This document shows, in pieces, positions 12,654 to 17,829 of a stretch of 64,000 bases of DNA. Numbering within the stretch: the first letter of the stretch is position 1; each line of letters opens with the position of its first letter. The notes under the pieces were generated by a model. It did no database searches. It had not been told where the DNA came from and worked only from the letters and a program-made list of their open reading frames with translations. The position numbers were made by a program, and so were the translations under genes. This DNA is from Dehalococcoidia bacterium (GTDB lineage Bacteria; Chloroflexota; Dehalococcoidia; UBA2979): assembly GCA_963692775.1 (NCBI GenBank), contig OY839116.1, positions 3,149,334 to 3,213,333 on the forward strand, written 5' to 3'.

Positions 12654-12747
12654 GTGTCGCCGGGGTTCGAACCCCGGCCTTCGTTGAGCGTGCGCCACGG
12701 CGTTCGTCCCGGCGTCGATGTGGGCGATGTGTCGCCGGGATTCGACC
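12654..12747 (+). repeat. Hairpin element copy a (12654-12690), a 38-nt intervening segment, and copy b (12729-12747, first 19 nt only)
   Basis: Copy a is GTGTCGCCGGGGTTCGAACCCCGGCCTTCGTTGAGCG. Copy b is GTGTCGCCGGGATTCGACC and ends abruptly at the IS21-type end. Confidence 0.85.
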
Positions 12748-13047
12748 TGTCGATCGTCAGGGTCTATAGACCACCCGTCGCCACAGTCATTGGACCACCC
12801 CGGGCAGCCGGTAGAGCGGCTTGGTATCAGTGAGCAGTAGGTCTCGTCAATCAGCTCCTTCCTGCGCCTCGAGCAGGGCGCGGTGCGGGGAGAGCCGCTG
12901 ACGGTAGCTCTCGCCCTCGATCACGATCTGGTAGCTGGCGTTGGCGAGCCGGTCGAGGGCGGAGTTGCCGAGGATCGGGTCGTCGAAGAGGCCGAGCCAC
13001 TCCTCAGCGGCACGGTTCGAGGTCACCACGAAGAGTCGATCGGCTGG
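12748..13047 (-). mobile_element. istB: IS21-family remnant: terminal region plus the 3' end of istB (the istB fragment is ~12847-13047)
   Basis: The minus-strand translation ...SNRAAEEWLGLFDDPILGNSALDRLANASYQIVIEGESYRQRL stops at 12847, which is an IstB-like C-terminus by recall. The ~100 bp beyond the stop carries repeated GACCACCC motifs, as in multi-repeat IS21 ends. Upstream istB and istA are absent. Confidence 0.6.
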
Positions 13048-13382
13048 GTGTCGCCGGGGGTAGACCACCGGCCTTCGTTGAGCGTGCCGCGGGCCGTGCA
13101 CCGCGTCGCACAGGCGTGGATGTGTCGCCGGGGGTAGACCCCCCGGCCTTCGTTGAGCGTGCCGCGGGCCGTGCACCGCGTCGCACAGGCGTGGATGTGT
13201 CGCCGGGGGTAGACCCCCCGGCCTTCGTTGAGCGTGCCGCGGGCCGTGCACCGCGTCGCACAGGCGTGGATGTGTCGCCGGGGGTAGACCCCCGGCCTTC
13301 GTTGAGCGCATCGTAGATGAAGGTGGGTGAAGGAGAGATGAATGAGTGTCGCCGGGGGCAGCCTCCCGGCCTTTGTTGAGCG
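13048..13382 (+). repeat. Five hairpin elements (copies c-g) at 74-75-bp periodicity: 37-38-nt elements separated by 37-nt segments
   Basis: Copies start at 13048, 13122, 13197, 13272 and 13346. Three intervening segments are identical (TGCCGCGGGCCGTGCACCGCGTCGCACAGGCGTGGAT). The fourth (13309-13345) is unrelated and AT-richer. Confidence 0.9.
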
Positions 13383-13394
13383 GCTGTAGGGGCC

Positions 13395-15173
13395 ATGGGC
13401 ACAGATCAACTGCTCGTCGTGTTCGTACTCGCTCTCACGCTCGCGGGCTTCGCCTGGGGGCGCTGGCGCTACGACGCGGTGGCGCTGCTCGCGCTACTCA
13501 CGCTCGTGCTGGGCGGCGTCGTGCCGGGCGAGCGAGCCTTCGCCGGCTTCGGCCACCCCGCCGTCGTCACGGTCGCCGCGGTGCTCGTCGTCAGCCGCGG
13601 CCTGCAGAACTCAGGCGCCGTCGACACGGTGGCCCGTGTGCTCACCCTCGCAGGCGGTTCGCTCACCCGCCAGATCGCGGCCACCTCCGGGCTGGCGGCG
13701 GCGCTCTCGGCGTTCATCAACAACGTCGGCGCGCTGGCCGTCCTCATGCCGACGACGCTGCGCCTCGCCCGCCAGGCGGGCAACCGGCCGTCCGCCGTGC
13801 TCATGCCGCTTGCCTTCGCCTCGCTGCTCGGCGGCCTCGTCACGCTCGTCGGCACCCCGCCCAACATCGTGATCGCCTCCTTCCGGGCGGAGACATCCGG
13901 GGAGCCGTTCGCGATGTTCGACTTCGCGCCGGTTGGCCTCGGCGTCGCGTTCGCGGGTCTCGCCTTTGTCTCGCTGGTCGGCTGGCGGTTGATCCCGCGG
14001 CGCGAGGAGGCGGTGAGCGAGCAGCTCTTCGAGATCGACGACTACCTCTTCGAGCTCCGGGCGCCGCGCGGCTCCCCGGCGATCGGGCGGACCATCGCCG
14101 AGCTCGGCTCGGAGACGGACGCCGAGTTCATCGTGCTCGCGCTCGTGCGCGGCGAACGGCGGATCGACATCCCCTGGAGTTTCGAGACGTTGCGCGCGGG
14201 AGACGTCCTGGCCGTCGAGGCGAGCAGCGAGGCGCTCGACGCGCTCGTCGCCGCGGCCGGGCTGGAAATTGCGGGCGGAAGCGGCGGCGCGGCGGCGGGG
14301 CCGGGCGGCGGCGACATCGTGCTCGCCGAGGCGGTGATCATGGACGGCTCGCAGCTGCAGGGGCGGACGGTCGTGCAGGCCGATCTGCGGCAGCGCCACC
14401 ACGTCAACGTGCTGGCGATTTCGCGCGGCGACAGGCAACGCTTCACCGCCCGCATGCAGGATCTGGCGCTCGAGGCAGGGGACGTGCTGCTCCTCCAGGC
14501 GGATCGCCGCGAGTTGCCCTCCACGCTCGAAACGCTACACTGCCTGCCGCTGGCCGAGCGCGAGCTCGCCGCCGGGCGCCGCGAGCGCCGCGCGCTGCTC
14601 GCGACCTCGATCTTCGGCGGTGCCCTCGTGCTGGCGGCCGTGCTGCGGCTGCTGCCGATCCAGGCCGCGCTGGCGCTCGCCGCCGCGGTGATGGGGCTGA
14701 TCGGGCTGGTCTCGCCCAAGGAGGTCTACGAGTCGATCGACTGGCGGGTGATCGTGCTGCTGGGCGCGATGATCCCGGTCGGCGGGGCGCTGGAGGAGAC
14801 GGGGCTCGCGGCCGAGACGGCGGCGGCGCTCGTCGCGGTCAGCGGCGGCTGGCCGCTGTGGACGAACGTCGCCGTGGTGCTCGTGACCTCGATGTTCCTG
14901 TCGGACCTCGTCAACAACACGGCGGCGGCGGTGCTCATGGCGCCGATCGCGCTCGGCGTCGCGGGCGGACTCTCCGCGCCGGCGGATCCGTTTCTCATGG
15001 CCGTCGCGGTGGGAGCCTCGGCGGCGTTCCTGACTCCGATCGGCCACCAGTCGAACCTGCTGGTGATGGGGCCGGGCGGCTATCGCTTCGGCGACTACTG
15101 GCGGCTGGGGCTGCCACTCGAGGCCGTGATCACGGCCGTCGCCGTGCCGCTGATCGTGCTGGTCTGGGCGTAA
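13395..15173 (+). CDS. SLC13/DASS-family permease with two central TrkA-C (RCK_C) domains
   Basis: 592-aa intact ORF with polytopic hydrophobic N- and C-terminal halves. The central soluble segments have an RCK_C-like pattern (LFELRAPRGSPAIGRTIAEL..., VIMDGSQLQGRTVVQADL...). Confidence 0.8.
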   Translation: MGTDQLLVVFVLALTLAGFAWGRWRYDAVALLALLTLVLGGVVPGERAFAGFGHPAVVTVAAVLVVSRGLQNSGAVDTVARVLTLAGGSLTRQIAATSGLAAALSAFINNVGALAVLMPTTLRLARQAGNRPSAVLMPLAFASLLGGLVTLVGTPPNIVIASFRAETSGEPFAMFDFAPVGLGVAFAGLAFVSLVGWRLIPRREEAVSEQLFEIDDYLFELRAPRGSPAIGRTIAELGSETDAEFIVLALVRGERRIDIPWSFETLRAGDVLAVEASSEALDALVAAAGLEIAGGSGGAAAGPGGGDIVLAEAVIMDGSQLQGRTVVQADLRQRHHVNVLAISRGDRQRFTARMQDLALEAGDVLLLQADRRELPSTLETLHCLPLAERELAAGRRERRALLATSIFGGALVLAAVLRLLPIQAALALAAAVMGLIGLVSPKEVYESIDWRVIVLLGAMIPVGGALEETGLAAETAAALVAVSGGWPLWTNVAVVLVTSMFLSDLVNNTAAAVLMAPIALGVAGGLSAPADPFLMAVAVGASAAFLTPIGHQSNLLVMGPGGYRFGDYWRLGLPLEAVITAVAVPLIVLVWA

Positions 15174-15195
15174 GGCGCGTCCTCGCCGGGGCGCA

Positions 15196-16260: not shown

Positions 16261-16524
16261 TGCTGCGCGAGCGCCGCTCCGAGCTGGCGCGCGACCCGCG
16301 CTCGAGCGGATCGCCTCCGGCCTCGGCTCGGGCGTTGCCTCGCCTGGCGGTCCGCAGCTCCCGCCTGCGGCGAACGGGACTGCCGCCAACGGCGCCTCGC
16401 CGCAGGCCAGAACCCGGCCGCTGCGCCCGCCCACCCCTCGCCAGCAGGCGCGCTGGGAAGGCTATCCAGCAGGCGCAGTTGCAGGGACTGTCGATGCGCG
16501 CCACCGCCTGGCTGCTCGGGCTCT

Positions 16525-17004
16525 CCCGCGTGACGCTACGTACTCGACAGAGTGGTGGCCGGAGATTTGCAAGCCTCGCAAGCCGCCGAGCTCCTGGGCA
16601 TCAGCGAGCGACACGCCTGGCGGCTCCTCGCCGCCTACCGCGCGCGCGGAGCGGCGGCGCTTGCGCACGGCAACTGCGGGCGCCGTCCCCACAACGCCAC
16701 CGCAGCCGACGTCGCCTCGGCCTGGTGCGCTTCGCCAGCTCGCGTTACCCGGGCGCGAATCACACGCACCTCGCCCGAGCTGCTCTGGGAGCACGAGGGC
16801 CTGGACCTGAGCTGGACGGTCCGCCGGATCCTGACGCGGGCCGGCATCGCGAGTCCCCGACGCCGCCGCCCGCCCGAGCACCGCGTCCGGCGTGAGCGGA
16901 TGCCGCGCGAGGGCATGCTGGTCCAGGTCGACAGCAGCCACCACGCCTGGCTCGATCAGCGAGGCCCGCGCTTCGCCCTCCTGCTCGCCGTCGACGATGC
17001 GCGG
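16525..17004 (+). pseudogene. ISNCY-like transposase, N-terminal third only (fragment B)
   Basis: HTH region LDRVVAGDLQASQAAELLGISERHAWRLLAAYRARGAAALAHGN, running on to ...[29 protein letters not shown]. It ends at the junction with the leuA fragment. Confidence 0.55.
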
Positions 17005-17007
17005 CCG

Positions 17008-17790
17008 GGTCCATGATCTCGTAGGTCTCGCGCAGCTTCAGCACGCCGTCCTGGTGGATGCCGGAGGAGTGGCGGAAAGGCGTTGCGCCCGACGACCGAC
17101 TTGTGCGGCTGCACGGCGAGCCCGGAGACGCGCTCGACCAGGCGGCTCGCGCGGTAGAGCTCCTCGGTGCGCGCGCCGCTGTGCAGCGCGGCGAGATCGG
17201 CGCGCGTCTCGAGCGCCATGATCACTTCCTCGAGCGCGGTGTTGCCGGCGCGCTCGCCGATGCCGTTGATCGCGCCCTCGACCTGGCGCGCCCCGGGGGA
17301 GCAGCCCGGCGAGCGAGTTCGCGGTCGCGAGCCCGAGGTCGTCGTGGCAGTGCACGGAGATGCGGGCGCGCGCGATGTTCGGGACGTGCTCGGCGACGCC
17401 CGAGATCAGCGCCCCGAACTCGTGCGGGAGCGCGTAGCCGACGGTGTCGGGGATGTTGACGGTGGTCGCGCCGGCCGCGATCACGGTCTCCAGCAGCTCG
17501 TGGAGGAAGGCCGGGTCGGAACGCGTCGCGTCCATCGGCGAGAACTCGACGTCGGGGCAGTGGGCGGCCGCGCGGGCGACCGCGGCGCGGGCGAGCTCCG
17601 TGACCTGCTCGCGGCTCTTGCGGAGCTGGTGCGCCATGTGGATCTCGGAGGAGGAGACGAAGACGTGGGTGCGCGGGCTCTCCGCGTCCGCGAGCGCGCG
17701 CCAGCAGGCGTCGACGTCGCCGGGGTGCGCGCGGGCGAGCCCGGCGATCACGGGCTCGCGCACCTCGCGCGTGATCAGCGAGACGCGGTG
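17008..17790 (-). pseudogene. leuA: 2-isopropylmalate synthase (LeuA-family) internal fragment with several frameshifts
   Basis: Minus-strand pieces in three frames: ...AGLARA...HVFVSSSEIHMAHQL...DVEFSPMDATRSDPAFL...NIPDTVGY...[16 protein letters not shown], then MIMALETR...[13 protein letters not shown], then [12 protein letters not shown]. Both gene ends are missing. Confidence 0.7.
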
Positions 17791-17792
17791 AC

Positions 17793-17829
17793 GTGTCGCC
17801 GGGATTCGACCCCCGGCCTTTGTTGAGCG
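17793..17829 (+). repeat. Hairpin element copy h (GTGTCGCCGGGATTCGACCCCCGGCCTTTGTTGAGCG)
   Basis: It has the same conserved flanks as copies a-g, and its first 19 nt are identical to the truncated copy b. It sits exactly at the 5' breakpoint of the leuA fragment. Confidence 0.85.

Follow-up and report, generated by a model that had tools for sequence, protein, structure and literature searches.

In the type I-G CRISPR systems, as described for Thioalkalivibrio sulfidiphilus and Geobacter sulfurreducens, the arrays are built of 36-37-nucleotide (nt) repeats and 34-40-nt spacers, with each repeat comprising a GC-rich stem-loop, 4 nt and an 8-nt handle (PMC9638904, PMC10504553). The I-G protein Csb2 cleaves 4 nt 3' of the hairpin and leaves the 8-nt handle, and the protospacer adjacent motif (PAM) is TTN (PMC9638904). 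In both I-G and I-C systems, the non-PAM end is integrated first, at the leader side, while Cas4 stays on the PAM end (PMC10504553). The DNA analyzed here is a stretch of 64,000 nt (the window) from a Dehalococcoidia bacterium (contig OY839116.1, positions 3,149,334 to 3,213,333), in which a short hairpin element stands at the breakpoints of gene fragments in a decay zone. These hairpin elements are almost certainly type I-G CRISPR repeats, the remains of a second array, transcribed on the + strand, which is an orphan within the window and lies behind a complete type I-C cas operon with its 57-repeat array. The object is of a known kind: an eroded orphan I-G array behind an I-C locus, hit by an IS21-family element, with foreign or displaced DNA replacing the leader and a spacer.

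The element is 37-38 nt long and has the form GTGTCGCCGGG-loop-CCCGGCCTTYGTTGAGCG. Pattern scans of the 64 kb detected seven full copies (a, c, d, e, f, g and h) and b, a stump of 19 nt; each lies on the + strand within positions 12654-17829, with none elsewhere in the window and a chance expectation of zero. A covariance model, derived from 44 repeat variants of other genomes only, recovered the same seven full copies (46-62 bits, E values of 1e-9 to 1e-13) and nothing else. Copy a (12654-12690, GTGTCGCCGGGGTTCGAACCCCGGCCTTCGTTGAGCG) scores 61.7 bits and is followed by a 38-nt spacer (12691-12728) and by copy b (12729-12747), which is the first 19 nt of a repeat, with the loop cut by the IS21-family end. 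The contiguous piece of this array 2, found by both the pattern scan and the covariance model, spans 13048-13382 and holds copies c (13048-13084), d (13122-13159), e (13197-13234), f (13272-13308) and g (13346-13382). Copy h (17793-17829, GTGTCGCCGGGATTCGACCCCCGGCCTTTGTTGAGCG) scores 50.3 bits. The start-to-start period is 74-75 nt between a and b and from c to g, with intervals of 37-38 nt, and is broken between b and c and between g and h. The c-g spacers are three identical 37-mers and one unique sequence. At least four repeat variants exist among the eight copies. Copies d and e have one extra C in the stem (38 nt), copy f is 37 nt long, and copy c shows a C-to-A change. Copies g and h have the T29 variant in common and differ from one another at ~7 positions, whereas the first 19 nt of h are identical to copy b.

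The same 37-nt sequence was found by an exact-pattern scan, with one genome per species, in at least 119 stretches of other genomes (L001-L119). Among the matches listed, arrays of this sequence reach 109 copies, have a period of 72-76 nt and contain unique spacers, and the hosts include Acidobacteriota, Chloroflexota, Gemmatimonadota, Proteobacteria, Spirochaetia and others. In the same set of matches, a cas4 gene of the I-G type (HCDGVW motif) adjoins the array in ~35 loci, a conserved leader end reading ATTAGCA or ATTAGGG is found directly 5' of repeat 1 in ~55 arrays from many phyla (for example at 5154-5161 in L004, 6322-6329 in L047 and 6281-6288 in L060), and the arrays hold 2,681 unique spacers with a modal length of 35-37 nt. 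In the three loci that were checked (L004, L047 and L071), the array is located just downstream of cas3g, a Cas3-extension gene, cas4 and cas1, in the same orientation, which is the type I-G arrangement. The repeat of L005 is identical to copy a, and tandem identical spacers are also present in the genuine arrays of L022 and L040.

The repeat is laid out as 5 nt, a 7-bp stem, the loop, 4 nt and the 8-nt handle, and the stem shows covariation, with G12-C19 changed to A-U in five arrays. In the fold of every copy in the window, 5 nt are left as a 5' tail and 12 nt as a 3' tail, which fits the published processing of I-G CRISPR RNA (crRNA; PMC9638904). By analogy, the hairpin is presumably the 3' stem-loop of the crRNA, bound by the I-G Cas5-Cas6 fusion Csb2, and the last 8 nt of the repeat (GTTGAGCG) would be the crRNA 5' handle. 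The window array further resembles the described I-G arrays in its spacer length, and its repeats share the orientation of the neighboring cas operon and array. It differs from them by having no I-G cas genes, no leader, several repeat variants, three identical spacers, and kilobase inserts in place of the leader and of a spacer. A tblastx comparison of the window with I-G loci gave no cas3g-like match, and the only cas genes present are of type I-C, so the array is an orphan within these 64 kb. The leader end ATTAGCA/ATTAGGG is absent before the first repeat, where a tadC fragment precedes copy a, and only a weak GATTA is observed at 17861-17865. This GATTA ends a 36-nt segment directly after copy h (cf. 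the I-G leader end ATTAGCA) and is followed by a very degenerate repeat-like sequence (GTGTCGCAGGG...). The whole weak candidate (17830-17902, + strand) could, judging from its letters, represent a terminal spacer with a terminal repeat, or a leader remnant; the chance expectation for its 12-mer is 0.13. A ninth, degenerate copy at 17866-17902 was rejected, since the covariance model gives no match there. In Rfam the second repeat family has no match to any curated CRISPR-DR model (array 1 alone matches one, DR9), and three array-2 spacers, including that at 12691-12728, gave no exact match among viral contigs.

All the gene fragments of the decay zone (tadA'/tadC', istB' and leuA'), as well as the intact permease, end 0-12 nt from repeat edges, in agreement with the claim of the first-pass annotation that the hairpins stand at gene-fragment breakpoints. 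At the junction between the last I-C repeat and tadA', CpaF homology is visible within 10 nt after the repeat. The junction of tadC' with copy a follows an 86-residue N-terminal open reading frame without a domain match, for which the precision is not measurable. Copy b is cut after nt 19 by the IS21-family end exactly at the TGTC of position 12748, as aligned to the IS21 end of L004, and on the other side of this remnant the C-terminal 50 residues of istB' (minus strand) precede copy c, with IstB homology extending to within 9 nt or less of it. Between copy g and the permease, 11-12 nt of native upstream sequence are kept (relatives read ...CCTATCCTGTGCAGGCC directly before the GTG). At the junction of leuA' with copy h, LeuA homology is certain from 8-10 nt before h and possibly from 0-3 nt; the match runs from profile position ~55 onward, and nothing in LeuA corresponds to the residues that h encodes. 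The positions read earlier for copies b, c, g and h (the cut in the loop of b, the istB truncation at c, the 12 nt between g and the permease ATG, the leuA truncation at h and the identity of its first 19 nt with b) were thus all reproduced. In the case of copy a, what stands is that it cuts an 86-codon reading frame lying after tadB with an overlapping GTGA start; the name tadC, however, comes from context only, as Pfam gives no match.

The inserts are 2160, 300 and 4410 nt long, in agreement with the earlier figures of 2.2, 0.3 and 4.4 kb. None of the three shows terminal inverted or direct repeats or a target-site duplication. The arrays of the other genomes contain nine large gaps, of which at least eight are due to ordinary insertion of an insertion sequence (IS), where the two halves of the interrupted spacer or repeat are still present along with a target-site duplication; the two large inserts of the window are therefore unusual. 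Orphan or degenerate arrays disrupted by an IS are comparable to the window in having an IS21-family element in a repeat (comparable IS insertions are present inside arrays of the same family in L017, L035, L073, L076, L077, L079, L100 and L111). The window departs from them in that its IS is incomplete and neither of its large inserts carries IS ends.

The tad fragment (10494-12653, + strand, 2160 nt) reaches from the 3' edge of an I-C repeat to the 5' border of copy a. It consists of tadA/cpaF' (10494-11404, +), from which ~120-135 N-terminal codons are missing, tadB (11401-12397, +), with one frameshift near 12176-12185 as read from the sequence, and the putative tadC' (12394-12653, +), of which only the first 86 codons are left. 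TadA' shows 57% identity to its best non-self homologue and 53% to CpaF of related genomes, whereas the permease is 77-82% identical to its counterparts in those relatives. The tad fragment looks foreign because TadA' is only 57% identical to its nearest homologue while the permease reaches 82%. In a search for the donor of this fragment, the best relative (57% identical) was too distant for a PAM or a microhomology to be read. The value of 82% for the best permease homologue also means that there is no sister strain in the databases, and exact-protein look-ups of the permease and of Cas7 returned no record.

The IS21-family remnant (12748-13047, minus strand, 300 nt) comprises a terminal end and the last 50-66 codons of istB. 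Its DNA is 79% identical to the IS21 end of L004, starting with TGTC; the istB part corresponds to positions 188-233 of the Pfam family IstB_IS21 and matches IstB in many loci by tblastn. The TG-starting terminus with the adjacent istB identifies an IS21 insertion, and, with istA and most of istB missing, what is left is a remnant. IS21-family elements are located inside I-G repeats in three genomes: in the window (12748), in L017 (2159-4405, reverse) and in L076 (3077-5283). They are inserted after repeat nt 19, 18 and 7, respectively, two of them in the hairpin loop, and the IS21 family may have a target preference for I-G repeats.

The third insert (13383-17792, 4410 nt) is a mosaic occupying the position of a spacer. 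It starts with the 11-12 nt of native permease upstream sequence and continues with an SLC13/DASS permease (13395-15173, + strand), which is intact and full-length but promoterless. In relatives the permease belongs to a CotH-ApbA-ADH-permease-SBP synteny, and the window permease lies outside this conserved neighborhood. Next come a weak aminotransferase-like C-terminal fragment (15201-15545, minus strand) and two copies of an rve/HTH-type IS, both truncated and in permuted order (15545-16535 and 16532-17008). The two IS copies are arranged head to tail, the 3' part preceding the 5' part, and overlap in 94 nt that are 88% identical (15540-15633 and 16907-17000); an intact relative is found near I-G arrays in L025 and L039. 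The mosaic ends with leuA' (17009-17792, minus strand), an internal fragment (~aa 55-303) with two frameshifts. The decay zone is bounded by tRNA-Leu(CAA) (18034-18121) and tRNA-Gly(GCC) (18201-18275), both on the minus strand; the order in the window is I-C cas operon, 57-repeat I-C array, 2.16-kb tad fragment, eroded I-G array and tRNA genes. A metagenome scan for the ancestral junction, with the 32-mer just right of copy h, gave no matches. Two candidate links between a repeat and the adjoining gene were tried and rejected. A CGGCCTTCGT match in L121 had suggested that repeat g and the permease were linked ancestrally, but it aligns with the conserved native ...GTCGCCTATCC... of other relatives, and the covariance-model match there has E = 6. 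The PGD codons of LeuA (GTCGCCGGG, + strand), considered as microhomology with copy h, are one base off in spacing, and the intervening codons have no LeuA match.

As to how the pattern arose, we tentatively favor short-homology or other illegitimate recombination during decay of the array, a route to which we give somewhat less than an even chance when it is taken by itself; the whole account, that is the array identity together with such a decay, appears slightly more probable than its opposite. In this route, the array would have been decaying in a plastic region beside the two tRNA genes. An IS21-family element would have transposed into the loop of repeat b, by ordinary transposition, and several illegitimate recombinations (deletions or replacements) would have followed, either through few-base homology with the GC-rich start of the repeat (the GTGTCGCCGGG part) or with its end, or through breaks there. 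In this way the array would have lost its leader and at least one spacer, and the IS a part of itself, and the foreign tad fragment, the istB stump and the 4.4-kb mosaic would have become joined to repeat borders. The repeats would mark breakpoints because they are multi-copy, GC-rich and nick-prone sites in a locus no longer under selection, and we infer that they do not move and that no hairpin recombinase acts on them. Decay is supported by the exact IS21 end at 12748, the frameshifts in tadB and leuA', and the truncated and permuted IS copies, as well as by the foreign-looking TadA and a permease torn from its conserved synteny. The option of the first-pass annotation in which foreign DNA had entered an old repeat array was essentially right, the copies being repeats of a decayed type I-G CRISPR array. 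Its suggestion that the hairpins are hotspots of recombination or insertion has partial support: IS21-family elements are found in a repeat loop both in the window and in L017, and several junctions lie at repeat borders.

Other genomes offer examples in favor of the short-homology route. In L028, in L084 (at two sites) and in L090, the start of an I-G repeat is joined to a truncated cas4, at places where conserved cas4 codons, either GTN GTC GCC near the N-terminus or GAC GGN GTN of the HCDGVW motif, resemble GTGTCGCC. The fusions are located at ~7890-7949 in L028 (reverse), 3837-3955 and 5057-5177 in L084, and 6870-7008 in L090 (reverse), and they delete cas4-cas1-cas2 together with the leader. 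Such fusions may, from their sequences, represent a recurrent short-homology route to loss of the adaptation module. Solitary I-G repeats with a gene fragment at the 5' edge are found in L024 (5344-5381, reverse), where the fragment is the motif VI region of an SNF2-like helicase, and in L064 (7019-7055), where it is the 3' part of a tRNA.

Several observations weigh against this account. Microhomology is not demonstrable at any junction of the window, as there are no donor sequences. The five non-IS junctions all lie 0-12 nt outside intact repeats, although random or microhomology-guided breaks should also hit the inside of repeats and the spacers; for breakpoints uniformly distributed in a 75-nt unit, four junctions within ~10 nt would be expected with a probability of (11/75)^4, or ~5e-4, by our own estimate. 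The junctions occur at both the 5' and the 3' borders and in two repeat families. The GTGTC at the junction of tadC' with copy a is duplicated and not shared, and a simple microhomology crossover does not predict a duplication. Ordinary IS insertions keep spacer halves and a target-site duplication, and the large inserts of the window keep neither. As regards the identity of the array, no I-G cas genes are present in the window, and the orphan status holds for these 64 kb only.

The neighboring type I-C cas genes span 1251-6036 on the + strand and comprise cas8c (1251-3200), cas7 (3206-4096), cas4 (4109-4774) and cas1 (4713-5798), which score above the cut-offs of the NCBIfam models Cas8c, Cas7c, Cas4 and Cas1c, respectively, and a cas2-like gene (~5821-6036), recognized from tblastx similarity to the region downstream of cas1 in I-G loci; all five are on the + strand. 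CRISPR array 1 (6298-10493, + strand) contains 57 identical 37-nt repeats (GTAGCGCCCGGCCTTCGGGCCGGGCGAGGATTGAAAC; Rfam CRISPR-DR9, 57.7 bits) and 56 spacers of 35-40 nt. Its last repeat (10457-10493) is intact, not degenerate, and abuts the 5'-truncated tadA/cpaF without a trailer, which indicates that the original trailer end of an otherwise healthy array has been lost. Neither the array-1 spacers nor the terminal 38-mers of the fragments have a match of at least 26 nt in the window. The I-C cas4, cas1 and cas2 products (window 4109-6036) show 50-60% protein identity to their homologues in I-G loci (L004, L008, L035, L038 and L116). With adaptation proteins this similar, cross-use of the two repeat types is conceivable on sequence grounds, that is, one integrase could have used both.

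The sharpness of the repeat-border junctions could also be explained by the CRISPR integrase. Here the Cas4-Cas1-Cas2 proteins of the adjacent I-C system, or of the lost I-G system, would have transferred the 3' ends of long DNA, foreign or from the nearby chromosome, to a repeat border, either the 5' one (leader side) or the 3' one (spacer side); a half-site intermediate, with no PAM for Cas4 to cut, would then have been fixed by replication or repair, giving kilobase "oversized spacers" and a replaced leader. We regard this origin of the junctions as unlikely, though several features agree with it. All five non-IS junctions are at the two positions where Cas1 cuts and joins, at both borders and in both repeat families. 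The inserts carry no target-site duplication, terminal inverted repeats or spacer halves, unlike the IS insertions of other arrays, which leave spacer halves and a target-site duplication, and the junctions of tadC' with a, of istB' with c and of leuA' with h have no TT 34-42 nt upstream, as a failure of PAM-side processing predicts. The 50-60% identity of the I-C and I-G adaptation proteins and the identity of b and h over their first 19 nt, which is expected of one duplicated repeat, point in the same direction, as does the published leader-side-first order for the non-PAM end (PMC10504553). Against this, neither large insert resembles the outcome of a simple full-site integration with duplication of the repeat: the mosaic is flanked by g and h, which are unlike at ~7 positions, and the tad fragment by repeats of two families; no insert is found between two identical repeat copies, the only identity of this kind being that of nt 1-19 of b and h. 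The junctions are resolved to 10-12 nt, not to the single nucleotide, and the cas4-repeat fusions of other genomes are explained by microhomology. The rulers of Cas1-Cas2 accept, to our knowledge, prespacers of ~33-37 bp, and we know of no report of kilobase integration, a size limit that also speaks against this route. Nivala and colleagues (2018, cited in PMC6698737) reportedly described non-canonical Cas1-Cas2 integration producing "neo-CRISPR" loci with spacer-sized inserts and a duplicated target. The window resembles such loci in having junctions at the positions of integrase action and foreign DNA between repeats, but it differs in the size of its inserts (2.2 and 4.4 kb) and in having non-identical repeats on their two sides. 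The general proposition that CRISPR integrases occasionally join long DNA ends to repeat borders in vivo, giving oversized spacers, leader replacement and precise deletions, seems to us rather improbable.

Exact borders would need no special enzyme if the first or last 35-38 nt of each fragment had been a spacer, and recombination with its protospacer, on a mobile element or in the chromosome, had drawn in the adjoining DNA. Varble and colleagues reportedly found phage-CRISPR recombination of this kind in staphylococci in 2019, and it would likewise give gene fragments starting or ending exactly at a repeat. The foreign look of the tad fragment, and the plausibility of IS21 and conjugation-type tad genes as CRISPR targets, also fit, whereas leuA and the promoter of a permease would be strange targets. 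Among the array-1 spacers, none matches the fragments. The spacers of the I-G family offer a test of the PAM: in the 2,681 unique spacers a 3-nt periodicity is locked to the spacer 5' end, with a strong depletion of A and T at positions 3 and 6; a PAM that is usually a TTC (Phe) codon in GC-rich coding DNA would lead to such a pattern. This reading, drawn from the codon-phase periodicity alone, is consistent with the published TTN PAM (PMC9638904). A direct reading of the PAM, by comparing the family spacers with the non-array DNA of the fetched loci, gave weak partial matches only. None of the three fragment-repeat junctions has TT at -34 to -42, and the sole TTC, near the junction of istB' with c, would give a 29-nt spacer. 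The window thus differs from the staphylococcal type of recombination in having no PAM at the expected distance, the fact that disfavors this explanation, and no sign that the fragment ends ever were spacers; we hold it to be quite improbable. The same missing PAM argues against a spacer origin of junctions in an assembly artefact, in which mis-joins would have occurred within repeats, or within spacers that have an identical target in the metagenome. The source is evidently metagenome-assembled, and a path switch in a spacer shared with its target would produce joins exactly at the repeat edge; however, a short-k-mer chimera is unlikely in a 3.22-Mb contig, and the resolved 57-repeat array and triplicated 75-nt unit imply long reads, which leaves an artefact very improbable. 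Least probable, and close to refuted, is a mobile hairpin (an element like the repetitive extragenic palindromes, REP, with their RAYT partner, a miniature inverted-repeat transposable element, MITE, or another non-autonomous transposon) that truncated genes by insertion. The first-pass annotation had proposed ends of a non-autonomous element with a RAYT/HUH partner, and a short GC-rich palindrome beside truncated genes, with single copies beside gene fragments also in L024 and L064, does recall REP elements and MITEs. The copies in the window, however, are not dispersed but lie in one zone, in one orientation and at a regular 74-75-nt period, without terminal inverted repeats or target-site duplications, and their sequence is identical to that of cas-associated array repeats of many phyla. 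Moreover, the genes are not interrupted, as their other halves are absent, and that proposal is abandoned.

The "hairpin at every breakpoint" is explained as a decaying CRISPR array, and no new mobile element or recombinase is needed. The puzzle that is left concerns the five independent junctions at the borders of intact repeats and the kilobase inserts replacing the leader and a spacer. Were the adaptation integrase to make such joins, CRISPR loci, besides serving as immune memories, would now and then give rise to deletions and gene capture, which would bear on the loss of cas modules and on the origin of orphan arrays, and eroded arrays would constitute a fossil record of integrase-driven rearrangement and gene capture.

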